A DNA stretch of 61,913 nt, the filler included, from Hausera hauseri (Eukaryota): assembly GCA_046269625.1 (NCBI GenBank). It is 9 parts of 9 records of this genome, joined end to end, with 100 filler letters (N's around TTAATTAATTAA, not from the genome) between each part and the next. Parts side by side here need not be neighbours in the genome. Positions count along the whole stretch, not along the records: positions 1 to 17,282 come from JBJURY010222186.1; 8 more parts are not named here. One strand, 5' to 3'. Position numbers and translations under genes: made by a program. Below the pieces are notes generated by a model. It did not search any database, was not told where the DNA came from, and was given only the letters and a program-made list of their open reading frames with translations. This document shows positions 1,223 to 40,716 of this stretch, piece by piece. Every line of letters begins with the position of its first letter. Positions within the stretch are counted from its first letter, which is position 1.

Positions 1223-2689
1223 ATGGGAAAATCAGCAAGTAAGGTTGAAGGATTAGAAGGAGATGAAAAGTTTATGAATCAAAAACACCCTGGAAGTTGT
1301 ACTTTCAGGAATAAATGGTTAAAGGAAGGTATTAAACTTACACTAAAAGTAGAGACATGGCAAGGACAGGTCTCTAAGAAAGAAGCAGAAAAAGAGAAGG
1401 CAACAGGAAGTAAGAAAAAGAAGCTTGAAGAGGAAGTGCAGGCAGCGAGGCTGTGGTTAGACGAGTCTAAGAATAGAAGAGACCAAGTGAGAGCCTCTAA
1501 GGCTAGAAAGGATGAGGCGGCACTGATGGTCCGCCCTGAAGACAATGAAACACAGCTGAGGCACCGACAGACAGGTCTCCCTCAGAACAGCAAGACCCCT
1601 GTTACAGCTAGTGCCCCTAATGATACTGGACCCCCACCACCCCCCGGTAAAAAACATACAGATGATCCAACTCATGATTATAACACCCGCACCACTTCTA
1701 AAAAACTGACTGCCACCAGACAACTGGACATGACAGCCATGGTTGAACCACCCCCCTATGGACCAGAACCCTCTGAAAGACTATTTGGAAAAGGCGGATT
1801 GTACCCCCTGATTCAGGTGGCCAATCCCAACCCAAAAGAGGAGGACGGCCCTGGAGGGATGGTTCAATATGTGTTCAGACCTTGGACCTTAGCAGAAGCA
1901 CAGGCAGCAGTAGGAGGAGTTACCCCCCACAGAGAAGATGTAGAGAAGTGGGTAGAAGACATGACTCAGGTGCTCCACTCATACCGGTTAAATGGGTTCG
2001 AGGCAGGTCAAGCCTTGCAGTCCTCACTAGGGAAAGATTGGGCTAGGGTCAGAGGAGAATATACAGGAAGGGACAGAACGGGAACTCCCTTTGAGTATCG
2101 CACCACCCCAGATCCAAATGGAGCATTCTCACCTGATTATAGAGCTCAACTGATGGCCCTGTTCGATAGAGTAAGAGAAGCCTTCAAAAAGCGAGCTAAT
2201 TATGCTGAACTGCGCGCTGTGACACAGAAACCCAATGAACCAGTAGATGAATTCAGAGTCAGGTTTGAACAGGCTTTTAAATTACACAGCGGTATACAGT
2301 TTCAGGAAGACGATGACTCAGCATACCAACAGCAGCTCAAACAAGGCCTCTTAGATCAAGCAAAACCTAATCTAAGAACCTGGGTACAGACCCATTTTGT
2401 AAATTGGCCATCTGCAAGTGTTAGTCAGGCCATGGATTGGCTTAGACATGCAGAAAAGGTTAACCCTAAAGATGCAGGAACTTACTCTTTGAATCAATAC
2501 ACAGGAAGAGGACGAGGCAACAGGGGAGGTCCCAGAGGAAGGGGAAACATGGGATACAGGGGAGGCAGAGGAGGTAGAGGTTTTAAACCTAGAGGACAGC
2601 AGAACAATGAAGGCTGCTGGACGTGTGGCTCTCCAGACCACTGGTCCAGAGATTGCCCAAAAAACAACGGCCCCAAACAACAAGCATGA
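1223..2689 (+). CDS. gag: Gag polyprotein
   Basis: MGKSAS myristoylation signal, PPPY late domain, MHR-like QKPNEPVDEF, CCHC knuckle CWTCGSPDHWSRDC. Confidence 0.95.
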   Translation: MGKSASKVEGLEGDEKFMNQKHPGSCTFRNKWLKEGIKLTLKVETWQGQVSKKEAEKEKATGSKKKKLEEEVQAARLWLDESKNRRDQVRASKARKDEAALMVRPEDNETQLRHRQTGLPQNSKTPVTASAPNDTGPPPPPGKKHTDDPTHDYNTRTTSKKLTATRQLDMTAMVEPPPYGPEPSERLFGKGGLYPLIQVANPNPKEEDGPGGMVQYVFRPWTLAEAQAAVGGVTPHREDVEKWVEDMTQVLHSYRLNGFEAGQALQSSLGKDWARVRGEYTGRDRTGTPFEYRTTPDPNGAFSPDYRAQLMALFDRVREAFKKRANYAELRAVTQKPNEPVDEFRVRFEQAFKLHSGIQFQEDDDSAYQQQLKQGLLDQAKPNLRTWVQTHFVNWPSASVSQAMDWLRHAEKVNPKDAGTYSLNQYTGRGRGNRGGPRGRGNMGYRGGRGGRGFKPRGQQNNEGCWTCGSPDHWSRDCPKNNGPKQQA

Positions 2690-3625
2690 CTAGATCAGGA
2701 ACATGAAAACCCACCTACTAAACCAGATGTAGATGTTTATTCAGCATGGGCAGTTCTTAATGCTTTAAAGGAACAACCCTACATAGTTTTAAAGGTGGGT
2801 CAGACAAAGGTTGAATTCCTTTGTGACACAGGTGCATGCAGAACTGTGTTGAAAGACACAGTCCCAGAAATACAACTGTCTAAAAGCACCCTATGGGTCA
2901 GTTCAGCAAATGGACAAATGACTAAAGAATATTTGTCCAAACCCATATCAATTGTGGACCCAGAAACAAACATAACCAAATTTGCACCAATAATAGTCTC
3001 TCCTAAATGCCCCATAAATCTCCTAGGCAGAGACATGATGCAGAAATTAAAGCTTGCTATAGTGCCCACCCAACACGGTATGAGAGTCCACCGTGTAGAA
3101 TCAGTCTTTGTGCTAAATGATTCAGCCCCTACCATGTATGCTTCTCTAGATGTAGAAGCAAATAAGCAAACCAACCCTTTTGAGACGAGAGATCTGATAA
3201 ATGATGCAAAAAGCCAACTCTCCAACCCGCAGACAGAAATAGGTTACAACCATCTGCACGTGACCATGAAACTGTTGAATGACGCACAGGAAGCAAGCCT
3301 GTTTTCACAGTTGGCCCCAGTCACGATGGCAACAGATTATTTATACACAGACAGGTTCTCCTTTTCTGCTGCGAGTGTGCTGTTACCACAAATAATCAGT
3401 TCAGAATTTAACATGCAAAACTGCTCAGTTCCTCATCTCAGTCTGATGAAAGCTGACGATGCCAGCTGGAAAAACACAGGCCCCAGGTTAAAGACTGCAG
3501 CTACAGCCACAGACTGGGAACCAACACAAAATGAGTGGACATTCAGCCCCAGTTGTGGGCTGTGGCGCAAACCTCTGGTGCGAGTGCTTTATGCAGAGCC
3601 AAGGGTACACCCATTAAGTGACTGA
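2690..3625 (+). CDS. pro: Aspartic protease + 2H phosphoesterase-like domain (expressed by readthrough of the gag UGA)
   Basis: Open and in frame directly after the gag stop; FLCDTGA and NLLGRD protease motifs, then LHVTM and PHLSL (HxT/HxS) motifs. Confidence 0.9.
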   Translation, partial: LDQEHENPPTKPDVDVYSAWAVLNALKEQPYIVLKVGQTKVEFLCDTGACRTVLKDTVPEIQLSKSTLWVSSANGQMTKEYLSKPISIVDPETNITKFAPIIVSPKCPINLLGRDMMQKLKLAIVPTQHGMRVHRVESVFVLNDSAPTMYASLDVEANKQTNPFETRDLINDAKSQLSNPQTEIGYNHLHVTMKLLNDAQEASLFSQLAPVTMATDYLYTDRFSFSAASVLLPQIISSEFNMQNCSVPHLSLMKADDASWKNTGPRLKTAATATDWEPTQNEWTFSPSCGLWRKPLVRVLYAEPRVHPLSD

Positions 3626-6600
3626 CGGTGCGCAGCCCTACTATCTGATGAGGATGAGGAATTAATATCCAACTTACCTACATCCCTGTGGTCCCAAGGA
3701 CACTCAGATGTAGGGCTGTTGAACAGTATACCCCCCGTCAGGATCCAACCAAAAGGAACATTCAGACCAAGAATAAAACAATACCCATTAAAACCTGAGG
3801 CTGAAAATGGTGTTGCACCTGTCATACAAGATTTACTCAGAGCTGGAGTTATAAGACCATGTAACTCCTCTCCCTGCAACACACCCATTTTCCCAGTACA
3901 GAAAGCTGACAAACAATCATGGAGATTAGTGCAAGACTTAAGAGCAGTGAACCAAGCCATAATCTCCCGAGCCCCAAATGTGCCAGACCCACACACACTG
4001 TTGAACTCAGTACAAGCAGATTCACACTGGTTTACAGTTTTAGATCTGAGTAACGCTTTCTTTTCAGTTCCCATTCATCCAGACTCACAACACTGGTTTG
4101 CTTTCACTTTCAGAGGACAAAAATACACCTACACCAGATTGCCACAAGGCTTCACAGACAGCCCGACCATTTTTACAGAAGCAATAACTACATGTTTGCA
4201 AAATTTTACACCTAAACATAGCCAATTACTGGTCTACGTAGATGATCTTCTTCTCTGCTCAGACACAAAGGAACACTGCAGACAGGACTCTCTCTCTCTC
4301 TTAAAGTTTCTAGCAGAAACAGGAAACAAAGTAAGCAGGAAAAAGATGCAGTTTGTGCAGCCTGAGGTCATTTACTTAGGTCAAAGTATCTCAGCCTCGG
4401 GGAGGAAACTGCACACAGACAGACGAGAGAGCATTGCAAACGCTCCTAAACCTGAGACAAAGAAACAAATGATGCAATTTCTCGGTTTGTGCAATTATTG
4501 CAGAGCATGGGTGCCAGATTATGCAGGACACACACAGCCTTTGTTAGACATAATCTACTCTACACCCATGTCAATGAATCAAAAGATCATCTGGACTCCT
4601 GAAGCAGAAACAGCTTTCTGTAAAATAAAAGCCCTGCTGGTGCAAAGCACCTCACTGCTACTACCAGACTACTCAAAACCATTTGTGCAAATGGTAGATT
4701 GTAAAAACGGCTTTATGGTTTCAGTGCTAACACAGAAACATGGTGGGAAAAACAAGCCATTAGCATTCTACTCAAAACGCCTGGATCCAGTGGCAACGGC
4801 ACTGCCCCCTTGTGTCCAAGCAGTGTGCGCTGCAGCAATGGCAGTCCAGGCCTCGGCTGATGTGGTTCTGTTCCATGAAACAACACTGTTGGTTCCACAT
4901 GCTGTAGATGTTTTACTCTTACAAAGTAAATTGACAACCCTTTCTCCGGCCAGACAGATAACATACACTGCACTGTTGTTATCACAACCTCACATTACCA
5001 TCCAACGTTGCAATATTTTAAACCCTGCCACACTACTGCCGTGCCCAACTGATGGCAGCCCACACAATTGTGTGACAGAAGCAGACTCTTTGTCCCTGCC
5101 GAGACCTGATTTAAAAGATGTGCCGTTGTCATCAGGAAAAGTGTGGTTTGTTGATGGCTCATGTTCAAAAGCTCAGAATGGAAAAAACCTGTCAGGCTTT
5201 GCAGTAGTTGAACTGCCAAACACAGTAATCTATGCTGCTAAACTACCAGATCATTTCTCCGCCCAAGCAGCAGAAATCCAAGCTCTAACAAAAGCGTGTG
5301 AATTAGCTAAAGGGCAACAATTAACGGTGTATACTGACAGCCAGTATGCATTCTCAACCCTGTTCTATTTTGCAAAACAATGGGAGAGGCGTGGTATGAC
5401 CACATCCACAGGGAAACCTGTGACTCATGCGGCCCTATTAAAAGAGCTCTTAATGGCCATACATTTACCAGCTGCCCTAGCTGTGGTGAAGTGTGCAGCC
5501 CACCAAAAAGGTACAGATTTTGTAACCAGGGGCAACACCCTGGCTGACATAACTGCAAAGCAAGCAGCAGCAGGAGATTTCAACACGGACACACACCTCT
5601 CCTCCACCCAAGCCCCAGCCATTGATGATGACATTCTAAAAAATGCACAACTACTAGCGCCAAAACAGGAAATCCAATCATGGGTCAACAGAGGGGCGAC
5701 ACAGGCTGATGCCATATGGACACTAGATGGCAAACCCGTCCTTCCTAAGTCTCTTTTTAAAGCGGCTGCTGTGGCGACACATGGCCCTTGCCACGTGTCG
5801 ACAGGAGGGATGGTAGAAATAATAACCCAGTGGTTTACAACTATAGGGTTGGAAGGGTACCTTAAACAATTTTGTAAACAATGTGTGACGTGCATAAAAC
5901 ACAATCCACAGGGCAACATGAGACCAAAAAGAGGGGCCTTTCCAGCACCCTCATACCCTTTTCAAACCCTACACATGGACTTTATTGAACTAAATCAGAG
6001 TGGACCACACAGATACTGCTTGGTACTGATAGATGCATTTTCAAAATGGGTTGAAATAATACCCACAGCAAGACCAGATGCATTATCAGTAGCAAAAGCC
6101 ATTTGTAAAGACATTATCCCAGCTCACGGGATACCAGAAACCTTGTACTCAGACAATGGAACACACTTTGTAAATGAAATAGTACAAAATATGGCAGACC
6201 ATCTACAAATAAACTTGAAAAACCATTGTGCCTACCATCCACAAAGTGCTGGATTGGTAGAGAGAACAAATGGAACAATAAAAAGCCGTCTTAAAAAATG
6301 CATGGAAGAGACAGGGAGACCGTGGCCAGAATGTTTACCATTAGTAAAACTGTACATGAGGATCACACCATCTGCTGCAGGCCCAACACCTTTTGAAATA
6401 CTGTATGGAAGACCATACAGATTACCAGTGTTCGATTTAGACAGAGCACATGAAGAAAACACCCTGGCAGATTACATGATAAACACTTTTAAGCTAAAAG
6501 ATGTTCAGAATACAAATGTACTGCCCTCTGGTCCTTTGTCTCCACAGGAAACACCAGTAAAACCAGGAGACTGGGTGTTCATCAAAGTAATAAAAAAGAA

Positions 6601-6733
6601 ACACTGGAACAGCCCAAAGTGGGAGGGACCATATCAAGTGATCCTGACCACACCAACAGCAGTAAAAATCGCTGAAAGACCTTCATGGATACATCTCAGT
6701 CACTGTAAGTTGCAAAAAGTGCTCAGTCCATAG
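3626..6733 (+). CDS. pol: RT - RNase H - integrase (in frame after the second UGA)
   Basis: LPQG and YVDD (RT); WFVDGS and YTDSQY (RNase H); HHCC, D..D..E and GPY (IN); frame open from 3626. Confidence 0.95.
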   Translation, partial: RCAALLSDEDEELISNLPTSLWSQGHSDVGLLNSIPPVRIQPKGTFRPRIKQYPLKPEAENGVAPVIQDLLRAGVIRPCNSSPCNTPIFPVQKADKQSWRLVQDLRAVNQAIISRAPNVPDPHTLLNSVQADSHWFTVLDLSNAFFSVPIHPDSQHWFAFTFRGQKYTYTRLPQGFTDSPTIFTEAITTCLQNFTPKHSQLLVYVDDLLLCSDTKEHCRQDSLSLLKFLAETGNKVSRKKMQFVQPEVIYLGQSISASGRKLHTDRRESIANAPKPETKKQMMQFLGLCNYCRAWVPDYAGHTQPLLDIIYSTPMSMNQKIIWTPEAETAFCKIKALLVQSTSLLLPDYSKPFVQMVDCKNGFMVSVLTQKHGGKNKPLAFYSKRLDPVATALPPCVQAVCAAAMAVQASADVVLFHETTLLVPHAVDVLLLQSKLTTLSPARQITYTALLLSQPHITIQRCNILNPATLLPCPTDGSPHNCVTEADSLSLPRPDLKDVPLSSGKVWFVDGSCSKAQNGKNLSGFAVVELPNTVIYAAKLPDHFSAQAAEIQALTKACELAKGQQLTVYTDSQYAFSTLFYFAKQWERRGMTTSTGKPVTHAALLKELLMAIHLPAALAVVKCAAHQKGTDFVTRGNTLADITAKQAAAGDFNTDTHLSSTQAPAIDDDILKNAQLLAPKQEIQSWVNRGATQADAIWTLDGKPVLPKSLFKAAAVATHGPCHVSTGGMVEIITQWFTTIGLEGYLKQFCKQCVTCIKHNPQGNMRPKRGAFPAPSYPFQTLHMDFIELNQSGPHRYCLVLIDAFSKWVEIIPTARPDALSVAKAICKDIIPAHGIPETLYSDNGTHFVNEIVQNMADHLQINLKNHCAYHPQSAGLVERTNGTIKSRLKKCMEETGRPWPECLPLVKLYMRITPSAAGPTPFEILYGRPYRLPVFDLDRAHEENTLADYMINTFKLKDVQNTNVLPSGPLSPQETPVKPGDWVFIKVIKKKHWNSPKWEGPYQVILTTPTAVKIAERPSWIHLSHCKLQKVLSP
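6526..6548 (+). promoter_or_regulatory. Candidate env splice acceptor within IN
   Basis: Pyrimidine tract ...GTCCTTTGTCTCCACAG|G. Confidence 0.5.
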
Positions 6734-6910
6734 GAGAGGCTGTGGGGAAAGTCCTGGCTACAAAGGGGGGGTGAGCAATATAGAGGCACCTCGTCTCAAA
6801 CCAGGTGAACGTTCGATAGATCCCAGCCTCATTTTAGGCCTATGTGAGAGTGGTTTTGCAACTTAAGCAGTAATACCGAGCCTTTAAGGGGACGGCTTAT
6901 CTGTGTAGTG

Positions 6911-9124
6911 ATGGAGATTGCCATGGAAAGAATCATTGGACGGGCCCCTGTCCCACCACAGGACGAGGAGGACCCGGAACCAGAGGAAATGGTGCCAGAA
7001 ACCAGGCTCCAAAAATGGAGAAGAAGAACTGAACAATTCTTCTGGTTTGACGAGACCCCATGCTGGGTCTATTTGCTTTCATTTTTATTAAGTGCATGTT
7101 TGATGATTTTTCTAATGTTTAAGATTTTGTATCCTTTGATTGCAGGCCTTCCGATCCTCTCTCCTCCATGGACCACCCAGTCACATGACAGACCAAGGCG
7201 AACACTAGGGGTAGGAACACATAACTGGGCCATAGCAGGGAACAATCTGGTGAGACGCCACTTATGGAAAGCATCCTGTGTACGTCCTCAAACAAACATT
7301 ACAGTACAAGAAGGGACAACATCCACAGTTATGCTGGACCCGTGTCTTTATTTTCACTGTGATGACCCCAGGAAGTTAGGACATCCAGATATTTATGTAT
7401 GTGGAAAAAGGTTCTATGACAAACATGACTGCCCAAACTGTGATGCTTGGGACTACGCGTATTGGACCACATCACACAAAGATTGGGGGTATAAAATAGG
7501 TGAAGACAATAGCAACCTCAAAACCAGACTAACCATATGGAAAGTAAACTCTAGTTCACCTGCAGTAATGCTACAACTAAACAATGCTACTAAGAATGAC
7601 CAGGGTTTTTTCGTAGTCTGTGCCTATGTATCAGGAACCGACCCCTGCGCTCCTTTCTACTTGGAAGTTGTTAGCAAACCTGAAGAGGTAAAAAACCCCG
7701 TATATGTCCAACTAGGAGGTGGTGAGACTGAAACACATGTGCACCCGGAAGTAGACTCAGAACATCACTGGGCACACACCCCTATTTCTTTAAAAGGTAA
7801 CAAATGGTGGTCAGTACTGAGAAGCCTAACAGAGGCGGCAGGAGTTAATTCCTCTTGCTATGCCTGTACTCTATTTCCACATGACAATTTAGGAGCCATG
7901 CCAATAAGACCAGAACCCTTGCCTAAAAAACAGGTGGCCTGTACACTCCTAGCCTTGACCCCACCATTCCAATCCGCAGCAAATGGATGGAATGTGACCA
8001 GAAGTAACCTAACTGGGATATGTGCCAGTTTTGCAAACTTGACTGTAAGAACCAGTTCCAGTTTAAAGTTAAAAACCAAAGACATGCAGCTTTTTGCTCC
8101 CTTAGGATCTGTCCACCCCAAACACTTACAGATCACACACCCTGTTTGTTTTACCAGACCACTGACCAACAGAAGAGTTTTCATGGGACATGTTCAACAT
8201 TGTGAACAAATTTTTAATGCAACTTGTGGTGAGGCACCCTCAAACTTTTCAGATTGTTATGCAGGGACTCCTCAGGGCAAGGTTAATATCAGTACTCAGT
8301 TTAATCTTACACTCCCGGAAGCTGTAGCCATATGGCCCTCAGACTCTGGAGCTGGTAGCCTAAGGGGAAGTGTATGGTTGTGTGGGAACCACTATCATCA
8401 GGCTCTGCCTCCCATGTGGGCAGGGACCTGTGCTCTGGTGGAAATGAGACCCGCAGTGACATTAATGTCCTCTCTGGTGTACTCAACCCACCACTACCCC
8501 CACTACCGGATGCCTCCAAGCATGGACAGGAAAAAGAGGGATACTGTGGTCGTTTCGGGAGGAGCTAAATTCCTGTCAGGAATTTTGCCCTGGTGGGGAA
8601 CTGTAAACAACGCCCACCACATTGATAAATTGCACTTACAGTTAGAAAATTTGACTGCTTTAGTTGGTGATGGTTTCTCGGCTCTCACACCTTATCTGGC
8701 AGCCTCTAGGAACATGCTCACACAACACCAGATGGCTTTGGACATTTTGTTTGCCTCACAAGGAGGCTTATGTCACATCATAGGTGACTCATGCTGTACC
8801 TACTTACCCGACCCCACTGGAAATCTGACAGAGACTATTACACACTTAAACACCCTGCTTGCTACTATGAAGGAAGATGACGTACAGACGCCTGAGGGGT
8901 GGGACTGGTGGTCCTGGATGACGGGAGGTGGATGGAAAGCCTGGGCAGGCCGAATTGTGGTGCCTTTATTTTTCTTTCTACTATTAATTCTAATAATAGC
9001 TTGTTGTATTATTCCTGCTTTCAAGAAATGCATTGCTTCCATTTTTGTTCAGATGTTTTATCATCACATGCAACAGTATGCTCTTGTGGCTCAAGATGAG
9101 CCAGATGACAGCACTGCTGTTTAA
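6911..9124 (+). CDS. env: Envelope glycoprotein (gamma-type)
   Basis: N-terminal hydrophobic segment, CYAC (CXXC), RKKR furin site, fusion peptide, ISD-like QHQMALDILFASQGGLC, CX6CC, TM anchor; ATG at 6911. Confidence 0.95.
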   Translation: MEIAMERIIGRAPVPPQDEEDPEPEEMVPETRLQKWRRRTEQFFWFDETPCWVYLLSFLLSACLMIFLMFKILYPLIAGLPILSPPWTTQSHDRPRRTLGVGTHNWAIAGNNLVRRHLWKASCVRPQTNITVQEGTTSTVMLDPCLYFHCDDPRKLGHPDIYVCGKRFYDKHDCPNCDAWDYAYWTTSHKDWGYKIGEDNSNLKTRLTIWKVNSSSPAVMLQLNNATKNDQGFFVVCAYVSGTDPCAPFYLEVVSKPEEVKNPVYVQLGGGETETHVHPEVDSEHHWAHTPISLKGNKWWSVLRSLTEAAGVNSSCYACTLFPHDNLGAMPIRPEPLPKKQVACTLLALTPPFQSAANGWNVTRSNLTGICASFANLTVRTSSSLKLKTKDMQLFAPLGSVHPKHLQITHPVCFTRPLTNRRVFMGHVQHCEQIFNATCGEAPSNFSDCYAGTPQGKVNISTQFNLTLPEAVAIWPSDSGAGSLRGSVWLCGNHYHQALPPMWAGTCALVEMRPAVTLMSSLVYSTHHYPHYRMPPSMDRKKRDTVVVSGGAKFLSGILPWWGTVNNAHHIDKLHLQLENLTALVGDGFSALTPYLAASRNMLTQHQMALDILFASQGGLCHIIGDSCCTYLPDPTGNLTETITHLNTLLATMKEDDVQTPEGWDWWSWMTGGGWKAWAGRIVVPLFFFLLLILIIACCIIPAFKKCIASIFVQMFYHHMQQYALVAQDEPDDSTAV

Positions 9125-9143
9125 ACACCCTCTTTTACAGCTT

Positions 9144-9157
9144 AAACAGGAGGGATA
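9144..9157 (+). promoter_or_regulatory. Polypurine tract
   Basis: AAACAGGAGGGATA immediately before the LTR TG (again at 16684-16697). Confidence 0.85.
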
Positions 9158-9742
9158 TGTAAAGGATTTTCCTTTACATTATATTTTATTATTACTTGTT
9201 TATTCATTAAAGTATCTGTTTTTTAGTTAAGCTGTTTTACAGAGTGTGTGTGTGCTGTGAAAGGTCGTCTGCAGGTCGTCTGCAGTATCAAGCCAGCCAG
9301 TACTTCCTGTTAATCTTTTTTGAGATGCAGCTGTGAGCGGTTGCCGAACCTCGTACGAGATCGAGACATCAGACCACACTCTGCTCCAAAACATGTTTGT
9401 CATGCCCATATTTAGTCATGGAACGCGATGTATCTAAACGTTTCTTTGCATTCTATTAATATATATTTTGCTCATATATTATAACCACCACCCAGCAACA
9501 GTAAAAGTAACTTCTTTGCTGATTGGTGGTTTTTCACTTCCTGTTGTGAATAAAAACGATCACGCCGAGCCCCGAGGTCAGAGCTTCGATACATCAGCTG
9601 CCGTTAAGTTGAGTATTCTGAATCTCTCCTTTTGCAAAAGCGTAAGATCTTCAAAATCTCACGAATTGTCTGGTTGGTCTGTTAATGTTGGTTAATGGGG
9701 ATCGCTTGTGTTTAACTTGAGCTTACAGGAAAATATCCAACA
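9158..9742 (+). repeat. LTR (585 bp) shared between units A and B
   Basis: TGT...ACA termini, PPT before and PBS after; differs from the terminal LTR at 3 positions in U5. Confidence 0.95.
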
Positions 9743-9746
9743 TTTC

Positions 9747-9764
9747 TGGTGCCGTGACCCGGAT
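9747..9764 (+). promoter_or_regulatory. Primer binding site, tRNA-His type
   Basis: TGGTGCCGTGACCCGGAT after the LTR. Confidence 0.88.
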
Positions 9765-10506
9765 GGAATTCATCCTACACTGACGGGCAGACAGGACGCG
9801 CCGAACCCAGTGCACGGGCGGGTCCCCCGAACCTGAAAGAAAGCCTCGGAGGACTTCGTTTCTTCACGAGCCGGCGTTCTAGGTCCAAACTCCAACTGTC
9901 AGTGTCGGATGAACTTCCATCCACACTGTGACAGACGACAGACATTAGTGAGTATAAAATTGTGAACTTGTATGAATGATTTGAAAGAAAAGTGAAACAA
10001 GGGACAAGTATACACGGGGAAACAGAGAGTACAGGATAGGATCCTGGTACTGTGTGGGTTAAAGACCCGACACTTTAGAGTGGATCGAATTTTTAGTACG
10101 GAAAACTAGTTCGAGTCCAGGTCTAAAAATAAGAAAGTTTTTGAGTGGTTAATCCACAAGATAAAATTTTAAAAGTTAAACCCCGGTCCCGTTGTTAACA
10201 GAATTGTGCGTGTATGATTTGTACAAATGAGATGTGTATGAATGAGGGGAACTAAGAATTGGACTGGTGGTTCGTCCTGAAACCTGACGGTGTCAACATA
10301 CAGACGGACTACTTCTCCATTTCGGACCCTATTAAGGAGAATTTTAGGAGACTGAGACAGAATTTAATTCAAAATATTTGGATGAACCTGTCTATGTCTC
10401 ACATATATTAATAACATCACATATAAATTAATAAAACAACCAATAAATACGCAGAGTACTATTAAAGAATTACAATTTTAAATGATCACAGATTCCTAAA
10501 TTTATA

Positions 10507-10764
10507 CTGGAGTTACACGTCCATAGGCAACTTCCTCGTTTTGACCCACAAAACCCTCATACACGCGAATTACTTGATTTACTCCAACCCTATTTAGAGT
10601 TACTAAGAGAACGCCCTGAGTGTAAACTCTGTATTAAAATAAGACCTCTCACGCCTAGAGGTTTATACAGAGGATTAGGAGTTGTAAAAGTGGATTTAAT
10701 AGATCCAGTACAAGGAATTACGCAGCATTATTCTTTTGTATTTAGTTTAACAGGATTAAACTAG
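10507..10764 (+). CDS. Pre-gag accessory protein, 85 aa, putative CUG start (absent from ORF track)
   Basis: ATA-CTG-G start; LELHVHRQLPRFDPQNPHTRELLDLLQPYLELLRERPECKLCIKIRPLTPRGLYRGLGVVKVDLIDPVQGITQHYSFVFSLTGLN*; conserved with unit A through synonymous and conservative changes. Confidence 0.7.
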   Translation: MELHVHRQLPRFDPQNPHTRELLDLLQPYLELLRERPECKLCIKIRPLTPRGLYRGLGVVKVDLIDPVQGITQHYSFVFSLTGLN

Positions 10765-10767
10765 AAA

Positions 10768-12240
10768 ATGGGAAAATCGGCAAGTAAGGTTGAAGGATTA
10801 GAAGGAGATGAGAAGTTTATGAATCAAAAACACCCTGGAAGCTGTACTTTCAGAAACAAATGGTTGAAAGAAGGAATTAAACTTACCTTGAAAGTAGAGA
10901 CATGGCAGGGTCAGGTCTCTAAGAAAGAAGCAGAAAAAGAGAAGGCGACAGGAAGTAAGAAAAAGAAACTTGAGGAGGAAGTGCAGACAGCGAGGCTGTG
11001 GTTAGACGAGTCTAAAATTAGAAGAGACCAAGTGAGAGCCTCTAAGGCTAGAAAGGACGAGGCGGCCCTACTGGTTCGCCCTGAAGATAATGAAACACAA
11101 CTGAGACGCCGCCAGCCAGGCCCCCCACATGGCAGTAAGACCCCTGTTACAGCCAGTGCCCCTGAAGCCACTGACCCTCCTCCACCCCCTGATAAACAAC
11201 CAGATGACCCGTCCCATGATTACAACACCCGTACCACTTCCAAAAAATTGACTGCCACCCGACAACTGAACATGACAGCTATGATCGAACCACCCCCTTA
11301 CGGACCAGAGCCCTCTGAAACACCATTTGGGAAGGGTGGATTGTACCCCCTGATCCAGGTGGCCAATCCCAACCCAAAAGAGGAGGATGGGCCTGAGGGG
11401 ATGGTCCAATACGTATTTAGACCATGGACACTGGCAGAAGCACAAGCAGCAGTGGGAGGAGTGACTCCCCACAGGGAAGATACAGAGAAGTGGGTAGAAG
11501 ACATGACCCAGGTACTTCACTCATACCGGTTGAACGGGTTTGAGGCAGGTCAGGCTCTACAGTCCTCATTAGGGAAAGATTGGGCTAGGGTCAGAGGCGA
11601 TTATACAGGCAGGGACAGAGTAGGAACCCCTTTTGAGTACCGCACCACACCAGATCCAAATGGAGCATTCCCTCCTGACTATAAAGCTCAGTTGATGGCC
11701 CTGTTTGATAGGGTGAGAGAGGCTTTCAAAAAACGTGCAAATTATGCCGAACTACGGGCAGTAACACAAAGACCCAGTGAGCCAGTAGATGAGTATAGGG
11801 TTAGGTTTGAGCAGGCCTTTAAATTACACAGCGGCATACAATTTCAGGAAGGAGATGACTCAGCATACCAACAGCAGCTCAAACAAGGCCTCCTAGACCA
11901 AGCAAAACCTAATCTGAGAACTTGGGTTCAAACCCATTTTGTGAACTGGCCCTCTGCAAGTGTTAGTCAGGCCATGGACTGGCTTAGACATGCTGAAAAA
12001 GTTAACCCTAAGGATGCAGGTACTTACTCTCTAAACCAACCTCAATACACAGGGAGAGGAAGAGGTAACAGAAGAGGATTTAGAGGCAGAGGAGGCAGAG
12101 GATTTAAACCCACCAGGCCCCAAACAAACAGATTTAGAGGACCTCAAGGCAACAGCGACGGCTGCTGGACTTGTGGTTCTCCTGACCATTGGGCCAAGAA
12201 CTGTCCAAAAAATACAAGCAAAACTAATCCACAAGCATGA
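10768..12240 (+). CDS. gag: Gag polyprotein (diverged variant)
   Basis: Intact paralog of 1223-2689 with many synonymous differences. Confidence 0.95.
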   Translation: MGKSASKVEGLEGDEKFMNQKHPGSCTFRNKWLKEGIKLTLKVETWQGQVSKKEAEKEKATGSKKKKLEEEVQTARLWLDESKIRRDQVRASKARKDEAALLVRPEDNETQLRRRQPGPPHGSKTPVTASAPEATDPPPPPDKQPDDPSHDYNTRTTSKKLTATRQLNMTAMIEPPPYGPEPSETPFGKGGLYPLIQVANPNPKEEDGPEGMVQYVFRPWTLAEAQAAVGGVTPHREDTEKWVEDMTQVLHSYRLNGFEAGQALQSSLGKDWARVRGDYTGRDRVGTPFEYRTTPDPNGAFPPDYKAQLMALFDRVREAFKKRANYAELRAVTQRPSEPVDEYRVRFEQAFKLHSGIQFQEGDDSAYQQQLKQGLLDQAKPNLRTWVQTHFVNWPSASVSQAMDWLRHAEKVNPKDAGTYSLNQPQYTGRGRGNRRGFRGRGGRGFKPTRPQTNRFRGPQGNSDGCWTCGSPDHWAKNCPKNTSKTNPQA

Positions 12241-13170
12241 CTAGATCATGAAACCCCGCCCACCAAACCGGATGTGGATGTTTATTCAGCATGGACAGTC
12301 CTTAATGCTTTAAAAGAACAACCCTACATAGTTTTAAAGGTGGGCCAAACAAAAGTTGAGTTTCTTTGTGATACAGGTGCATGCAGAACTGTGTTAAAAG
12401 ACACAGTTCCAGAAATACAGTTGTCCAACAGCACCCTATGGGTCAGTTCTGCAAATGGACAAATGACCAAGGAATATCTGTCTAAACCTATATCAATTGT
12501 GGACCCGGAAACGAACATAACTAAAACCGCACCAATAATAGTCTCCCCCAAGTGTCCAATAAATCTACTGGGGCGAGACATGATGCAAAAACTAAAACTG
12601 GCCATAGTGCCCACCAAAAATGGAATGAGGGCCCACCGTGTAGAATCAGTTTTTGTACTTCACGATTCATCACCCACCATGTATGCATCTTTAGATGTAG
12701 AAGCAAATAAACAAGCTAATCCTTTTGAGACAAGAGATCTGATCAATGACGGAAAAAGACAACTCTCACACCCACAGACAGAAATAGGTTACAATCATCT
12801 GCACGTGACCATGAAACTGTTAAACGATGCACAGGAAGCAAGCCTGTTTTCACAGCTGGCCCCAGTCACGATGGCAACAGACTATTTATACACAGACAGG
12901 TTCTCCTTTTCGGCTGCGAGTGTGCTGTTACCACAAATAATCAGTTCAGAATTTAACATGCAGAACTGTTCAGTTCCCCACCTCAGTCTTATGAAACCTG
13001 AGGACTCCAGTTGGAAAAACACAGGCCCGAGATTAAAAACTGCAGCCGCTGCCACAGACTGGGAACAATCACAAAGTGAGTGGACATTCAGCCCCAGTTG
13101 TGGACTATGGCGGAAACCTCTAGTAAGAGTGCTTTATGCAGAACCAAAAGTACACCCATTAAGTGACTGA
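12241..13170 (+). CDS. pro: Protease + 2H phosphoesterase-like domain (readthrough)
   Basis: Same motifs as unit A; bounded by TGA-CTAG and TGA-CGG. Confidence 0.9.
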   Translation, partial: LDHETPPTKPDVDVYSAWTVLNALKEQPYIVLKVGQTKVEFLCDTGACRTVLKDTVPEIQLSNSTLWVSSANGQMTKEYLSKPISIVDPETNITKTAPIIVSPKCPINLLGRDMMQKLKLAIVPTKNGMRAHRVESVFVLHDSSPTMYASLDVEANKQANPFETRDLINDGKRQLSHPQTEIGYNHLHVTMKLLNDAQEASLFSQLAPVTMATDYLYTDRFSFSAASVLLPQIISSEFNMQNCSVPHLSLMKPEDSSWKNTGPRLKTAAAATDWEQSQSEWTFSPSCGLWRKPLVRVLYAEPKVHPLSD

Positions 13171-14273
13171 CGGTGCGCGGCCCTACTATCTGATGAGGAT
13201 GAGAAATTAATATCCAATCATGGGTCAACAGAGGGGCGACACAGGCTGATGCCATATGGACACTGGATGGCAAACCCGTCCTTCCTAAGTCTCTTTTTAA
13301 AGCGGCTGCTGTGGCGACACATGGCCCTTGCCACGTGTCGACAGGAGGGATGGTAGAAATAATAACCCAGTGGTTTACAACTATAGGGTTGGAAGGGTAC
13401 CTTAAACAATTTTGTAAACAATGTGTGACGTGCATAAAACACAATCCACAGGGCAACATGAGACCAAAAAGAGGGGCCTTTCCAGCACCCTCATACCCTT
13501 TTCAAACCCTACACATGGACTTTATTGAACTAAATCAGAGTGGACCACACAGATACTGCTTGGTACTGATAGATGCATTTTCAAAATGGGTTGAAATAAT
13601 ACCCACAGCAAGACCAGATGCATTATCAGTAGCAAAAGCCATTTGTAAAGACATTATCCCAGCTCACGGGATACCAGAAACCTTGTACTCAGACAATGGA
13701 ACACACTTTGTAAATGAAATAGTACAAAATATGGCAGACCATCTACAAATAAACTTGAAAAACCATTGTGCCTACCATCCACAAAGTGCTGGATTGGTAG
13801 AGAGAACAAATGGAACAATAAAAAGCCGTCTTAAAAAATGCATGGAAGAGACAGGGAGACCGTGGCCAGAATGTTTACCATTAGTAAAACTGTACATGAG
13901 GATCACACCATCTGCTGCAGGCCCAACACCTTTTGAAATACTGTATGGAAGACCATACAGATTACCAGTGTTCGATTTAGACAGAGCACATGAAGAAAAC
14001 ACCCTGGCAGATTACATGATAAACACTTTTAAGCTAAAAGATGTTCAGAATACAAATGTACTGCCCTCTGGTCCTTTGTCTCCACAGGAAACACCAGTAA
14101 AACCAGGAGACTGGGTGTTCATCAAAGTAATAAAAAAGAAACACTGGAACAGCCCAAAGTGGGAGGGACCATATCAAGTGATCCTGACCACACCAACAGC
14201 AGTAAAAATCGCTGAAAGACCTTCATGGATACATCTCAGTCACTGTAAGTTGCAAAAAGTGCTCAGTCCATAG
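13171..14273 (+). pseudogene. pol: pol remnant: RT/RNase H deleted, integrase out of frame
   Basis: Junction at ATCCAA (13212-13217) joins unit-A equivalents 3667-3672 and 5672-5677. Confidence 0.9.
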
Positions 14274-14450
14274 GAGAGGCTGTGGGGAAAGTCCTGGCTA
14301 CAAAGGGGGGGTGAGCAATATAGAGGCACCTCGTCTCAAACCAGGTGAACGTTCGATAGATCCCAGCCTCATTTTAGGCCTATGTGAGAGTGGTTTTGCA
14401 ACTTAAGCAGTAATACCGAGCCTTTAAGGGGACGGCTTATCTGTGTAGTG

Positions 14451-16664
14451 ATGGAGATTGCCATGGAAAGAATCATTGGACGGGCCCCTGTCCCACCACA
14501 GGACGAGGAGGACCCGGAACCAGAGGAAATGGTGCCAGAAACCAGGCTCCAAAAATGGAGAAGAAGAACTGAACAATTCTTCTGGTTTGACGAGACCCCA
14601 TGCTGGGTCTATTTGCTTTCATTTTTATTAAGTGCATGTTTGATGATTTTTCTAATGTTTAAGATTTTGTATCCTTTGATTGCAGGCCTTCCGATCCTCT
14701 CTCCTCCATGGACCACCCAGTCACATGACAGACCAAGGCGAACACTAGGGGTAGGAACACATAACTGGGCCATAGCAGGGAACAATCTGGTGAGACGCCA
14801 CTTATGGAAAGCATCCTGTGTACGTCCTCAAACAAACATTACAGTACAAGAAGGGACAACATCCACAGTTATGCTGGACCCGTGTCTTTATTTTCACTGT
14901 GATGACCCCAGGAAGTTAGGACATCCAGATATTTATGTATGTGGAAAAAGGTTCTATGACAAACATGACTGCCCAAACTGTGATGCTTGGGACTACGCGT
15001 ATTGGACCACATCACACAAAGATTGGGGGTATAAAATAGGTGAAGACAATAGCAACCTCAAAACCAGACTAACCATATGGAAAGTAAACTCTAGTTCACC
15101 TGCAGTAATGCTACAACTAAACAATGCTACTAAGAATGACCAGGGTTTTTTCGTAGTCTGTGCCTATGTATCAGGAACCGACCCCTGCGCTCCTTTCTAC
15201 TTGGAAGTTGTTAGCAAACCTGAAGAGGTAAAAAACCCCGTATATGTCCAACTAGGAGGTGGTGAGACTGAAACACATGTGCACCCGGAAGTAGACTCAG
15301 AACATCACTGGGCACACACCCCTATTTCTTTAAAAGGTAACAAATGGTGGTCAGTACTGAGAAGCCTAACAGAGGCGGCAGGAGTTAATTCCTCTTGCTA
15401 TGCCTGTACTCTATTTCCACATGACAATTTAGGAGCCATGCCAATAAGACCAGAACCCTTGCCTAAAAAACAGGTGGCCTGTACACTCCTAGCCTTGACC
15501 CCACCATTCCAATCCGCAGCAAATGGATGGAATGTGACCAGAAGTAACCTAACTGGGATATGTGCCAGTTTTGCAAACTTGACTGTAAGAACCAGTTCCA
15601 GTTTAAAGTTAAAAACCAAAGACATGCAGCTTTTTGCTCCCTTAGGATCTGTCCACCCCAAACACTTACAGATCACACACCCTGTTTGTTTTACCAGACC
15701 ACTGACCAACAGAAGAGTTTTCATGGGACATGTTCAACATTGTGAACAAATTTTTAATGCAACTTGTGGTGAGGCACCCTCAAACTTTTCAGATTGTTAT
15801 GCAGGGACTCCTCAGGGCAAGGTTAATATCAGTACTCAGTTTAATCTTACACTCCCGGAAGCTGTAGCCATATGGCCCTCAGACTCTGGAGCTGGTAGCC
15901 TAAGGGGAAGTGTATGGTTGTGTGGGAACCACTATCATCAGGCTCTGCCTCCCATGTGGGCAGGGACCTGTGCTCTGGTGGAAATGAGACCCGCAGTGAC
16001 ATTAATGTCCTCTCTGGTGTACTCAACCCACCACTACCCCCACTACCGGATGCCTCCAAGCATGGACAGGAAAAAGAGGGATACTGTGGTCGTTTCGGGA
16101 GGAGCTAAATTCCTGTCAGGAATTTTGCCCTGGTGGGGAACTGTAAACAACGCCCACCACATTGATAAATTGCACTTACAGTTAGAAAATTTGACTGCTT
16201 TAGTTGGTGATGGTTTCTCGGCTCTCACACCTTATCTGGCAGCCTCTAGGAACATGCTCACACAACACCAGATGGCTTTGGACATTTTGTTTGCCTCACA
16301 AGGAGGCTTATGTCACATCATAGGTGACTCATGCTGTACCTACTTACCCGACCCCACTGGAAATCTGACAGAGACTATTACACACTTAAACACCCTGCTT
16401 GCTACTATGAAGGAAGATGACGTACAGACGCCTGAGGGGTGGGACTGGTGGTCCTGGATGACGGGAGGTGGATGGAAAGCCTGGGCAGGCCGAATTGTGG
16501 TGCCTTTATTTTTCTTTCTACTATTAATTCTAATAATAGCTTGTTGTATTATTCCTGCTTTCAAGAAATGCATTGCTTCCATTTTTGTTCAGATGTTTTA
16601 TCATCACATGCAACAGTATGCTCTTGTGGCTCAAGATGAGCCAGATGACAGCACTGCTGTTTAA
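14451..16664 (+). CDS. env: Envelope glycoprotein, same protein as unit A
   Basis: Identical translation in the ORF track. Confidence 0.95.
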   Translation: MEIAMERIIGRAPVPPQDEEDPEPEEMVPETRLQKWRRRTEQFFWFDETPCWVYLLSFLLSACLMIFLMFKILYPLIAGLPILSPPWTTQSHDRPRRTLGVGTHNWAIAGNNLVRRHLWKASCVRPQTNITVQEGTTSTVMLDPCLYFHCDDPRKLGHPDIYVCGKRFYDKHDCPNCDAWDYAYWTTSHKDWGYKIGEDNSNLKTRLTIWKVNSSSPAVMLQLNNATKNDQGFFVVCAYVSGTDPCAPFYLEVVSKPEEVKNPVYVQLGGGETETHVHPEVDSEHHWAHTPISLKGNKWWSVLRSLTEAAGVNSSCYACTLFPHDNLGAMPIRPEPLPKKQVACTLLALTPPFQSAANGWNVTRSNLTGICASFANLTVRTSSSLKLKTKDMQLFAPLGSVHPKHLQITHPVCFTRPLTNRRVFMGHVQHCEQIFNATCGEAPSNFSDCYAGTPQGKVNISTQFNLTLPEAVAIWPSDSGAGSLRGSVWLCGNHYHQALPPMWAGTCALVEMRPAVTLMSSLVYSTHHYPHYRMPPSMDRKKRDTVVVSGGAKFLSGILPWWGTVNNAHHIDKLHLQLENLTALVGDGFSALTPYLAASRNMLTQHQMALDILFASQGGLCHIIGDSCCTYLPDPTGNLTETITHLNTLLATMKEDDVQTPEGWDWWSWMTGGGWKAWAGRIVVPLFFFLLLILIIACCIIPAFKKCIASIFVQMFYHHMQQYALVAQDEPDDSTAV

Positions 16665-16697
16665 ACACCCTCTTTTACAGCTTAAACAGGAGGGATA

Positions 16698-17282
16698 TGT
16701 AAAGGATTTTCCTTTACATTATATTTTATTATTACTTGTTTATTCATTAAAGTATCTGTTTTTTAGTTAAGCTGTTTTACAGAGTGTGTGTGTGCTGTGA
16801 AAGGTCGTCTGCAGGTCGTCTGCAGTATCAAGCCAGCCAGTACTTCCTGTTAATCTTTTTTGAGATGCAGCTGTGAGCGGTTGCCGAACCTCGTACGAGA
16901 TCGAGACATCAGACCACACTCTGCTCCAAAACATGTTTGTCATGCCCATATTTAGTCATGGAACGCGATGTATCTAAACGTTTCTTTGCATTCTATTAAT
17001 ATATATTTTGCTCATATATTATAACCACCACCCAGCAACAGTAAAAGTAACTTCTTTGCTGATTGGTGGTTTTTCACTTCCTGTTGTGAATAAAAACGAT
17101 CACGCCGAGCCCCGAGGTCAGAGCTTCGATACATCAGCTGCCGTTAAGTTGAGTATTCTGAATCTCTCCTTTTGCAAAAGCGTAAGATCTTCAAAATCTC
17201 ACGAATTGTCTGGTTGGTCTGTTAATGTTGGTTAACGGGGATTGCTTGTGTTTAACTTGAGCTTACAGAAAAATATCCAACA
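16698..17282 (+). repeat. LTR (585 bp)
   Basis: Copy of 9158-9742, preceded by the PPT. Confidence 0.95.
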
Positions 17283-22453: not shown

Positions 22454-23779
22454 GTGGCGACAGAACGAGTACCAATTAGACTAGTGAATAATGCACCAAC
22501 TCCCGTAAGGTTGCATGCCAATTCTACATTGGGCCATACTTATAAGATGTCAGCGATAACAATCGAAGAAAAACCATACAAATGTGCTGAATTTCCACCT
22601 CACGTCGAAACTAAATTTTCACCAGAAGTATATTGACAGTTTTATTAACTATTATGCAAATACCAGTCGGTTATTGCCCAAAATGAAGAAGATATAGGCA
22701 GAGCAAAAGCCCTAAGGCTAACAATCCCACTAAAAAAGAAACTTGGCTCCAATGACTAAATCGATTTGGAAGGGCAAAAGGTGCCCAAATGGTACCCACC
22801 ACCTCATTCATTGATGTCCGAAATAACTAAAGAGATAGAACGCATGTTCAAAGCCAACATAATACGACCAAGCTACCTATCTTGGTATTCACAAATACTC
22901 ATGGTTAAAAAGAAAAATACCACTAAACATAGATTCTGTATAGATTACCGAGCTCTAAACACTCTTATGATGAAGGACTCATTTCCACTACCGTCAGTAA
23001 AGGAAGCATTAGATAGATTATCAGGAGAAAAATGGTTTACCACACTGGACTTACAATCCGGATACTGGCAAGTAGAAATTGAAGAAGACGATTGTTACAA
23101 AACAGCGTTTAAGACGCACGACGGAGTTTACGAATTTAACGTCATTCCGTTCGGTATAAACACCGACCCAGCTATCTTCACCAGAATGATGAATAAAATG
23201 CTAATGGGACTCGATCGTGCATTTGCATACTTAGGCGATATAATGATAGCATCAAGAACAGAAGAAGAACACCTAAAGGACATCGAAGACACTCTCATGC
23301 GGTTGGAACAAGCAGAATTAAAACTGAACCCAAAGAAATGTAAATGGGCACAAAATACTGTATAATATCTCGGACATATAGTTGGAGAAGGAGGGTCAAA
23401 ACCAGATAAATCTTTACTAAACAAAATATCGGATTGTATAGAACCCCAGAACCAAAAAGAATTAAAACATTGGTTAGGCTTATGTGGATATTATGCAACT
23501 TATGTGCCAGACAATTCAAAAATAAATGCGCCGTTATATGGGCTATTGAAAAAAGGTATCAAATGGAAATGGACCGATGTCGAACAGAAAGCTTTCGACG
23601 AAATGAAAAAAATTCTAACAAATGAACCGGTGTTGAGATACCCAAATTTTAATTTACCATTTATAATTAAAACAGACTCAAGTAAAGAATGAATTGGTTA
23701 CGAGTTAGTTCAGAAAAGAGAAGACGAAGAAGTGGAACACTCAATTGCATACAGAGGACGATTGCTGAAGAAAGCCGAA
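22454..23779 (+). pseudogene. Ty3/Gypsy pol fragment (RT, start of RNase H)
   Basis: RFCIDYRALN, LDLQSGYWQV, AYLGD (decayed YLDD), FIIKTD; internal stops and frameshifts. Confidence 0.9.
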
Positions 23780-29543: not shown

Positions 29544-29643
29544 NNNNNNNNNNNNNNNNNNNNNNNNNNNNNNNNNNNNNNNNNNNNTTAATTAATTAAN
29601 NNNNNNNNNNNNNNNNNNNNNNNNNNNNNNNNNNNNNNNNNNN

Positions 29644-38900: not shown

Positions 38901-39874
38901 CAAAGTTTGCCCCTGAAAACTATAGCATTTCAGCCTCCAACACTAAGTGTGAGGTCAGTTTGCAGCAGTTTTCCCCCCCAATTAGCAAGTTAGCTTTGAG
39001 CTAGAAGGTGACGTACATAGAGTGACACCAGAGGGGCACGGCAACACATAGAAAAACAGACTGAGAACAGTTTCGACCGTGCCCCCCTGGTGTCAATCCG
39101 TGCCCCCTGTCATGGAAGGCGACGTACATGGAGCGACACCAGAGGGGCGCGGTTTACGCCTCCCCCCCCCCAAAATGGCCGCCGACGCTAAGTAATGACC
39201 GCACCCCTCTGGTGTCAATCCGTGCCCCCTCTCAGGTAAGGCGACGTACATAGAGCGACACCAGAGGGGCACGTGCCATATACAGCTGGTTGAGATTTCG
39301 CATGTCTGCAGCATATGTGATGCAAGAGTGCGAAATCTCACTCGCTGTTGTGATTAGTATGCAGGAAGCTAAGTGACGACCGCGCCCCTCTGGTGTCAAT
39401 CCGTGCCCCAACATGGCCGCCCGCGCCCCTCTGGTGTCAATTCGTGCCCCAAAATGGCCGCCCACGCAAAGTAAGGGCCGCGCCGCTCCAGTGTCAATCC
39501 GTGCCCCAATATGGCCGCCGACGCCAAGTACGCGGAGCGACACCAGAGGGGCGTGACCCCGGCGCCTCTGACGGCGCCCCTCTCGTGTCGATCCTCGTAC
39601 GACGTCACTGCTCCACCTGGTGTCCGTGTCGGCATGGCAAAAACCTTTACCCAATTCCTGCGCGGGGGTGAAGCGCACCAGACGCGCGGGACCACGACGA
39701 GGTGGGAGAGGGGGGCCGGTCCGGACGCATGGACGCCCGCCTTGCGTCTCTGCGACGTGCGGGGGCCGAACTGCAGGCGAAGAGCTTGCTCCAGACGAGT
39801 CTATGCCATTGACTTGTCATTATCGCGCTCCATTGCCGGTACGGGAAACTTCGCTCTGGGCCTAGCGGCCTAAG
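35957..39874. repeat. GC-rich non-coding module with nested subrepeats; possible non-autonomous DNA element
   Basis: Subrepeats GTACACGGA(T/A)TGAACC (36200-36620), CCCCTCTGGTGTCAATCCGTGCCCC (37150; 39080-39510) and a 38755/38941 duplication; CCTAAG at both ends. Confidence 0.6.
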
Positions 39875-40234
39875 AGATGGGCGAACGCCGTTCGGAAGCG
39901 CGGGGCGATGCCCTTGGTCGCCCCCGGCCGATCGAAAGGGAGTCGGGTTCAGATCCCCGAGTCTGGAGTGGCGGAGACGGATGCCGTGAGGCGTTGCAGT
40001 GCAAACGATCCCGGAGAAGCTGGCAGGAGCCCCGGGGAGAGTTCTCTTTTCTTCGTAAAGGGCAGGGCGCCCTGGAATGGGTTCGCCCCGAGAGAGGGGC
40101 CGGTGCCCTGGAAAGTGTTGTGCTTTTATGCGGCGTCCGGTGAGCTCTCGCTGGCCCTTGAAAATCTGGGGGAGAAGGTGTAAATCTCGCGCCAGGCTGT
40201 ACCCATATCCGCAGCAGGTCTCCAAGGTGAACAG
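39869..40234 (+). rRNA. 28S rRNA internal fragment (diverged, pseudogenic)
   Basis: CCTAAGAGATGGGCG...GATCGAAAGGGAGTCGGGTTCAGATCCCCGA...GTACCCATATCCGCAGCAGGTCTCCAAGGTGAACAG, conserved vertebrate LSU core. Confidence 0.9.
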
Positions 40235-40716
40235 NNNNNNNNNNNNNNNNNNNNNNNNNNNNNNNNNNNNNNNNNNNNTTAATTAATTAANNNNNNNNNN
40301 NNNNNNNNNNNNNNNNNNNNNNNNNNNNNNNNNNTTTTAAAAAAATTTTTTGCGCCCCTAAGAAGTTTGCCCACGGAACGACAGCCGCATCTCAATACTC
40401 CATCTCCATGGTACGCCACTCGTAAAAAGTATTTTTATTTTTTTGTAGATGTGCTTAACCTCTGATTTTCAAACCAATGATATGTTTTTAACCCACTTTA
40501 GGATTACAGAGCAGATGTCTCTGCAGGCTGAAATATCTAAAACTGTTTTGTGTCCTGACAAAAACTCGAGAGCAGCAGCAAACTCACCTGAGAGGAACAC
40601 CGGGGGCTTGATATACTACGCGTTCACACCATTTGAAGGTTATTTTTAGACACACTGCATGAAAATCTTCACATATAAGCACACATTGAATGCCTTTACT
40701 TCAAATTTACACGTAC

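Follow-up and report, generated by a model that had tools for sequence, protein, structure and literature searches.

Between the protease and the reverse transcriptase (RT) of an endogenous retrovirus from Hausera hauseri lies a domain with two histidine motifs that ends at a stop codon of its own, which raises the question of what this domain is and how the RT encoded behind the stop is made. The window, by which we mean the whole 61,913-nucleotide stretch of DNA analysed here (assembly GCA_046269625.1), is filled over its first 17.3 kb by this retrovirus, which consists of two tandem units with a common long terminal repeat (LTR; Table 1). In unit 1, gag, protease–2H and RT–RNase H–integrase form a single reading frame that is parted only by TGA 2687 (stop 1) and TGA 3623 (stop 2), giving the order gag–UGA–protease–2H–UGA–RT/RNase H/integrase. 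Unit 2 has the same layout, with a protease–2H frame (12241–13167) bounded by TGA 12238 and TGA 13168. Gag and the middle frame are ~85% identical in nucleotides between the units, and gag differs by 117 synonymous and 30 non-synonymous codons in 425; the integrase–env–LTR halves, by contrast, are 99.9% identical (13212–17282 versus 5672–9742). The halves may differ in this way because two related proviruses recently underwent recombination or duplication, or because the assembly was collapsed.

We also observed other features in the window. Primer-binding sites are present at 129–146 and 9747–9764, and we take both for tRNA-His sites. Walleye retroviruses are primed by tRNA-His (PMC3185748). 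Upstream of gag is a coding-like conserved stretch (10486–10764 in unit 2, ~946–1219 in unit 1), which terminates at a TAG three bases ahead of the start codon of gag. This stretch is open for 92 codons without an AUG in unit 2, is divided between two frames in unit 1, shows 59–68% amino-acid identity between the units and had no match in Pfam or the Atlas; WDSV has orf C at the matching position (PMC3185748). In unit 1, several short direct repeats (435–585) lie in the long 5′ leader and resemble the repeat region of ZFERV (PMC3382231). The remainder of the window (17383–61913) is composed of unrelated scaffolds with 100-base N/TTAATTAATTAA linkers between them, and includes a degraded gypsy-like RT (22760–23719), a LINE-like element (29592–31992), 28S rRNA (39838–40237), AT-rich frames without assignment (57893–60719) and a DNA-polymerase-B-like frame with neighbouring frames (45224–48865), the family of which was assigned by eye. 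These last frames are presumably arranged as in Polinton elements.

Table 1. Coordinates of the retroviral features, counted along the whole window
Feature	Coordinates	Strand	Basis and remarks
gag, unit 1, C-terminal CCHC zinc knuckle	1223..2686	+	Open frame, Pfam
Stop 1, UGA-CUAG, type II readthrough context	2687..2693	+	Motif as in PMC13517186, PMC4132726
Extended stem-loop predicted past stop 1, weakly supported	2709..2800	+	Shuffling z -2.16
Retroviral aspartyl protease and linker	2690..3109	+	Pfam RVP, E 4.6e-13
2H phosphoesterase domain, CNPase-like	3110..3622	+	Motifs (HVT 3257-3265, HLS 3434-3442), predicted fold
Stop 2, UGA-CGG, type II readthrough context	3623..3628	+	Same sequence in unit 2; boundary kept throughout the clade
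Predicted extended stem-loop, 6 nt past stop 2	3632..3719	+	z -3.58, 0/200 shuffles (window picked after a first look)
RT–RNase H–integrase frame	3626..6733	+	First Met is codon 241, beyond YVDD (204)
env (TLV_coat)	6911..9124	+	Pfam; 2H domain not detected in env
LTR common to both tandem units	9158..9742	+	
gag, unit 2, terminating in UGA-CUAG	10768..12240	+	88% amino-acid identity to unit 1
Protease–2H frame, unit 2, terminating in UGA-CGG	12241..13170	+	RT and RNase H deleted shortly downstream

The middle frame of unit 1 comprises 311 codons (2690–3622), and its Pfam RVP match covers residues 27–124. We counted ~170 further residues past the protease, where an earlier, sequence-only reading of this DNA had given ~165. 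Both of the 2H motifs that this reading described, HVT and HLS, were found at the positions it gave in unit 1, and both are intact in unit 2 (12802–12810 and 12979–12987), as it had said. Its boundaries for the domain, 3130 to 3622, were right at the end but not at the start: position 3130 is out of frame, and the modelled domain spans ~3110–3622. Comparison of the two units gave a dS of 0.51, a dN of 0.036 and an omega of 0.07 for the 2H region, and a dS of 0.76 and an omega of 0.03 for the protease region. The 2H domain is under purifying selection, and an omega of 0.07 at this divergence indicates that the motifs are not there by chance. The reading had also staked its assignment on conservation of the histidines among homologs, and we found HxT in 21/21 and HxS in 20/21 members of the window's protease–2H clade. 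In the 37 relatives in which the domain is fused to RT, motif 2 is HxT/S in 34 and motif 1 is HCT, which we take to be the CNPase motif, in 27. The suspicion that the domain itself might not be new was borne out, with 2H domains of fish retroviruses, including WDSV, listed by PMC9503650 (which cites Mazumder et al. 2002) and CNPase frames of teleost epsilon-like endogenous retroviruses described in PMC4977317 (which cites Basta et al. 2009).

An AlphaFold2 model of the domain, built on a 27-sequence alignment, had a pLDDT of 93.3 and a pTM of 0.87, and each motif histidine opens a β-strand in the model. The AlphaFold and Foldseek check that had been proposed for the 2H fold thus came out in its favour, with 2H proteins as the structural matches. 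Foldseek against the PDB returned goldfish RICH and mammalian CNPase as the top rows (E 8e-6 to 8e-4), and in VIA-align all of ranks 1–16 were occupied by 2H proteins. The best VIA-align match was mouse CNPase (2xmi; Z 14.8, rmsd 3.9, 159 aligned), followed by Acb1 (Z 8.1), a bacterial cyclic phosphodiesterase (8.1) and LigT-type proteins (7.3–7.5), with MHV NS2 (6.9), AKAP18 (6.6), rotavirus VP3 (6.0) and a poxvirus cGAMP phosphodiesterase (5.2) among the other 2H proteins. The viral 2′,5′-phosphodiesterase group (NS2, VP3 and AKAP7-like) therefore matches at Z 6.0–6.9 only, far under CNPase. The best three matches among the predicted viral structures of BFVD were Q2VF30 (unnamed) and envelope polyprotein entries of WDSV and WEHV1 (E 2e-9 to 3e-7). 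Look-alikes of the domain in the Atlas were tRNA-ligase cyclic phosphodiesterase and 2H clusters, at a recognition of 2118, below its 2300 mark.

Sequence searches did not assign the domain to a family. No 2H or CNPase model of Pfam matched in scans of 8, 25 and 14 proteins, and PDB sequence searches returned a chance match, yeast Usb1 at E 1.4 and proteases. Vertebrate CNPase and goldfish RICH have the catalytic domains that are nearest in structure, but the window's version is embedded in a viral polyprotein, is ~45 residues shorter and shares only 10–16% sequence identity with them. CNPase has an N-terminal kinase-like domain, whereas the domain upstream here is a retroviral protease. The C-terminal prenylation box that CNPase carries (PMC10761555) is absent from the end of the middle frame, where we looked for a CaaX motif. 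As judged from the predicted structure, the domain is a 2H enzyme that is CNPase-like by fold and not a filed CNPase by sequence; we use 'CNPase-like' because neither a CNPase nor any other 2H model of Pfam matched.

We then considered the stops on either side of the protease–2H frame. Stop 1 (UGA-CUAG) and stop 2 (UGA-CGG) are the same in both units despite the divergence of the flanking protease (dS 0.76) and 2H (dS 0.51) regions. In PMC13517186, UGA-CUA and UGA-CGG define type II (Beier–Grimm) readthrough, and UGA-CUAG is reported to permit up to ~31% readthrough in a mammalian gene (PMC4132726). Type II contexts occur at 6/176 TGA triplets in unit 1, both stops counted, and at 16/871 in the remainder of the window; the pol and env stops lack such a context. 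Endogenous retroviruses often carry nonsense mutations, and stop 2 could be an inactivating mutation of a dead provirus; it could also be an assembly error, as short scaffolds are strung together in the window and the 99.9% identity of the units' 3′ halves makes a local misassembly possible. Both explanations are largely refuted, and we give them very little credence: two divergent units have the same stop in the same context, the RT–RNase H–integrase frame of 1035 codons behind stop 2 is open, and a break at this site is common to relatives down to ~35% identity and to RT relatives of several fishes, as described below.

RNA folding differed between the two sites. The stem-loop past stop 2, which no shuffled sequence matched in a window picked after a first look, ranked 2/216 in an unbiased scan of gag–pol, and its signal depends on window length (75 nt gives a z of +0.5). 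Past stop 1, 5/200 shuffles were as good as the native fold in unit 1, and unit 2 gave a z of -2.21 with 6/200. Between unit 1 and unit 2, 24 pairs of the stop 1 fold are unchanged, 2 are changed on one side and 2 are broken; no compensatory pairs were found in it between the two units, and the stop 2 stem-loop likewise showed no evidence of covariation. The strongest local RNA fold of gag–pol lies in RNase H coding sequence (5323–5422; z -5.7, rank 1/216). We also considered selenocysteine recoding of the UGA codons and rejected it, as no SECIS family was found at Rfam gathering thresholds.

We next asked whether the break between 2H and RT extends beyond this element. A search of 1.84 billion cluster representatives for 2H homologs yielded 27 remote relatives. 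In 19/27, the protein stops 61–71 residues past the second histidine (63 in the window); four of the others end earlier, three end somewhat later and one continues into RT. A protease–2H tree of 55 rows, from which 11 short rows were left out, separated 21 non-fused rows, including the window's, from 32 RT-fused rows with a branch support of 100/98, and identity to the window within the non-fused clade falls to 33–36%. Two further rows, P0029, which ends at the junction, and P0027, which is truncated, sit on the fused side. The 91 RT relatives were collected over a length range that lets fused proteins in. In the RT tree, the window and 28 relatives form a 29-row clade (support 100/100), and a 2H domain is present in the same chain in 0/28 relatives within this clade versus 37/63 outside it. 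Within the clade, 27/28 begin at or past the junction, 12 of them within 5 residues; the 28th (P0041), in which Gag is joined to RT and RNase H to Env, seems to be a chimeric gene model. Outside it, 3/63 also begin at RT, which, together with P0029 and P0027, indicates that broken copies can mimic the pattern. RT begins 59–85 residues past the second histidine in the fused relatives and 64 residues past it in the window, with the stop counted, so the two frames abut. In both trees, the split clade adjoins the same fused group (P0030, P0056, P0060 and kin).

Among the named RT relatives, nearly all come from teleosts, and those that share the break are annotated in fishes ranging from Brienomyrus to Oryzias, Oreochromis, Poecilia, Syngnathus and Gymnodraco. 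We defined the clades from the trees themselves, and the support values describe the branch and are not an independent test; a Fisher p value for the clade counts leaves relatedness out of account, and we place no weight on it. The homolog evidence consists of predicted protein ends from separate, unpairable records, and the DNA evidence consists of the window's two units; no DNA of the relatives was found in two bacterial and archaeal genome scans or in a plasmid search. A search for longer 2H homologs came back blank, which we discounted because fused forms exist. Judged from these protein ends, the clade-wide break at the 2H/RT junction is a trait of the lineage, and it is fairly likely that what interrupts the frame there in the relatives is a stop and not a frameshift. 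We also noted an epsilon-like clade (P0120, P0109, P0121 and P0122) with a different insert of ~170 residues between protease and RT, which matched neither the 2H profile nor Pfam. The sequence-only reading had described the 2H domain as gated by its own stop codon. The stop is real and conserved, but the idea that it exists for the sake of the 2H domain was not supported: the dose of protease would rise equally, and 37/63 of the RT relatives outside the clade are fused.

How RT could be made behind stop 2 is constrained by its reading frame. The RT frame of unit 1 contains no AUG before codon 241, which lies past the YVDD motif (204), and its first 20 codons contain no AUG, CUG or GUG. The lack of an AUG ahead of codon 241 rules out simple independent initiation in this element. 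Foamy viruses offer the model for another route, in which stop 2 would not be read through and RT and integrase would come from spliced RNA or by re-initiation. Such a route would fit the 12/28 clade relatives that are annotated with a start 1–5 residues past the junction, as well as the gene model P0041 with its direct joining of Gag to RT. However, that model looks chimeric, given that it also joins RNase H to Env, and in 15/28 relatives the first start lies 12–100 residues inside RT, which argues that there is no conserved initiator. Splicing or re-initiation also runs up against the missing start codons described above and leaves the UGA-CGG context and the stem-loop unexplained, and we consider it quite unlikely. 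Readthrough of stop 2 in this element is, by comparison, probable.

We therefore propose that the element belongs to the endogenous retroviruses of fishes, in class I (epsilon-like, unclassified), and would produce its enzymes from genomic RNA through two readthroughs. Most ribosomes would halt after Gag, and a minority would pass UGA-CUAG to make Gag–PR–2H; a minority of these would in turn pass UGA-CGG, aided by the 3′ stem-loop, to make Gag–PR–2H–RT–RNase H–IN. The products would fall into the tiers Gag > Gag–PR–2H > Gag–PR–2H–Pol, with protease and 2H in excess of RT and integrase. The precursors would be packaged through Gag, and the protease would then free the 2H domain; by analogy, packaging and cleavage of this kind are likely. 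The earlier proposal that the position of the domain gives it a higher dose than RT follows if stop 2 is read through, but the protease shares the same tier and 2H is not singled out. Readthrough in MLV and alphaviruses is listed at 2–12% (PMC13517186); two readthroughs at such rates would hold Pol to at most ~1% of Gag, which would require one site or both to be efficient. Taken as a whole, enzyme expression through readthrough of two UGA codons in succession, as the habit of a lineage, is the interpretation that we favour, with somewhat less assurance than the readthrough of stop 2 in this element.

Each part of this design has counterparts elsewhere. WDSV, WEHV1 and teleost epsilon-like endogenous retroviruses share the 2H fold, and 37 relatives share the PR–2H–RT order; in the window's element, unlike in these fused fish relatives, a stop parts 2H from RT. 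In the pol protein of WEHV1 (P0114), protease and RT have no 2H domain between them, and the WDSV and WEHV1 matches are to envelope polyprotein entries, whereas we detected no 2H domain in the env of the window's element. The WDSV and WEHV accessory genes lie between env and the 3′ LTR, but here env ends at 9124 and the LTR begins at 9158. The epsilonretroviruses as a genus have one readthrough and a continuous pro-pol, in contrast to the second in-frame stop found here, and WEHV1 pol falls outside the window's RT clade. Gammaretroviruses and epsilonretroviruses (MoMLV, WDSV, SSSV and ZFERV) have the same in-frame stop between the zinc knuckle and the DTGA protease motif, and a UGA at the gag–pro site is known in SSSV, ZFERV and a toad endogenous retrovirus (PMC13517186). 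In MoMLV, WDSV, SSSV and ZFERV this is the one readthrough site, whereas the window's lineage has a second between pro–2H and pol; both stops of the window's element, unlike theirs, are in alphavirus-like type II contexts.

Betaretroviruses and deltaretroviruses (MMTV, MPMV and HTLV) have three product tiers, as proposed here, with Pol made after two recoding events. In betaretroviruses the pro tier also holds an accessory enzyme, dUTPase. The recoding events of MMTV, MPMV and HTLV are two frameshifts, with pro as its own frame (PMC12789967). These viruses use shifted frames and -1 frameshifts, whereas the window's element uses one frame and stops and belongs to an unrelated class I lineage, not to theirs; its double readthrough would be a convergent counterpart of their double frameshift. 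The type II readthrough of alphaviruses and coltiviruses involves the same hexanucleotides and an extended 3′ stem-loop a few bases downstream and gates the polymerase (PMC13517186); the window's element has these hexanucleotides twice in series on a retroviral RNA, with a stem-loop prediction that is strong at stop 2 and weak at stop 1. A 2026 review assigns one readthrough site (gag–pro) to gammaretroviruses, epsilonretroviruses and the unclassified retroviruses of fishes and amphibians (PMC13517186), ZFERV is described with one stop (PMC3382231), and a second site is not mentioned in passages of PMC8672886, PMC2684134, PMC3185748 and PMC12789967. In a literature search that covered mainly open-access main texts we found no description of a second retroviral readthrough site, and an earlier notice of it may exist in subscription papers, supplements or repeat-database annotations. 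What looks new is thus the second stop, or the double leaky-stop design; the 2H domain itself was already known.

The model of the domain bears on what the enzyme might do. We consider it very probable that the 2H domain is an active enzyme. A CNPase-like phosphodiesterase would act on 2′,3′-cNMPs or on RNA ends left by metal-independent RNases, generating a 2′-phosphate and a free 3′-OH. Going by the modelled fold, such 2′,3′-cyclic phosphates, whether free cNMPs or RNA ends, are by a narrow margin the substrate we would expect; cyclic RNA end processing has been suggested for some RNA-virus 2H domains (PMC9503650). Messengers of the cGAMP type are an improbable substrate, and 2-5A, which the sequence-only reading had placed among the candidates, is the least likely of all, because the fold is far nearer to CNPase (Z 14.8) than to NS2, VP3 or AKAP7 and loss of OAS1 has been reported for teleosts (10.1101/326454). 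In PMC6307210, 'fish' are listed as having OAS, but no detail is given.

That reading had further proposed that the stop serves an innate-immune antagonist, with stop 2 favoured in evolution because it increased the amount of an enzyme that is carried in the virion and degrades 2-5A or cGAMP. Such messengers are destroyed by other viral 2H proteins, which appear among our matches (Acb1, NS2, VP3 and the poxvirus cGAMP phosphodiesterase), and the WDSV and WEHV1 envelope polyprotein matches in BFVD suggest that the domain is kept elsewhere, as one would expect if its role were accessory. The host's own CNP is stimulated by interferon and inhibits HIV-1 assembly through contact with Gag (PMC10761555), so the family of the domain touches immunity. 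However, CNPase is ahead of all the antagonists by more than 6 Z units, teleosts have reportedly lost OAS1 (10.1101/326454), 37 relatives keep 2H at 1:1 with RT, and stop 2 is unable to separate the dose of 2H from that of protease. We find this origin of stop 2 doubtful. Under the CNPase-like chemistry, 2H present in virions above the level of RT might clear 2′,3′-cyclic nucleotides or restore a 3′-OH on RNase-cut RNA. Only tentatively would we extend this to an old and widespread teleost lineage that combines serial readthrough with a captured CNPase-like enzyme in virions countering an RNase or cyclic-nucleotide defence, in hosts without a 2-5A pathway.

The fold gives a long-known and apparently uncharacterised domain an order of candidate chemistries: CNPase-type, then cGAMP, then 2-5A. 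The strategy of pol expression classifies retroviral genera, with one readthrough in gamma- and epsilonretroviruses and frameshifts in others (PMC13517186), and according to the same 2026 review readthrough has been verified for no epsilonretrovirus. With the two stop cassettes, readthrough signals of type II, the alphavirus kind, would become available for assay from a retrovirus for the first time. Elements of this kind look nonsense-disrupted to annotation and may be scored as dead though intact. The double readthrough, if true, would give orthoretroviruses a third strategy of expression, in which two readthroughs follow one another under alphavirus-type signals.
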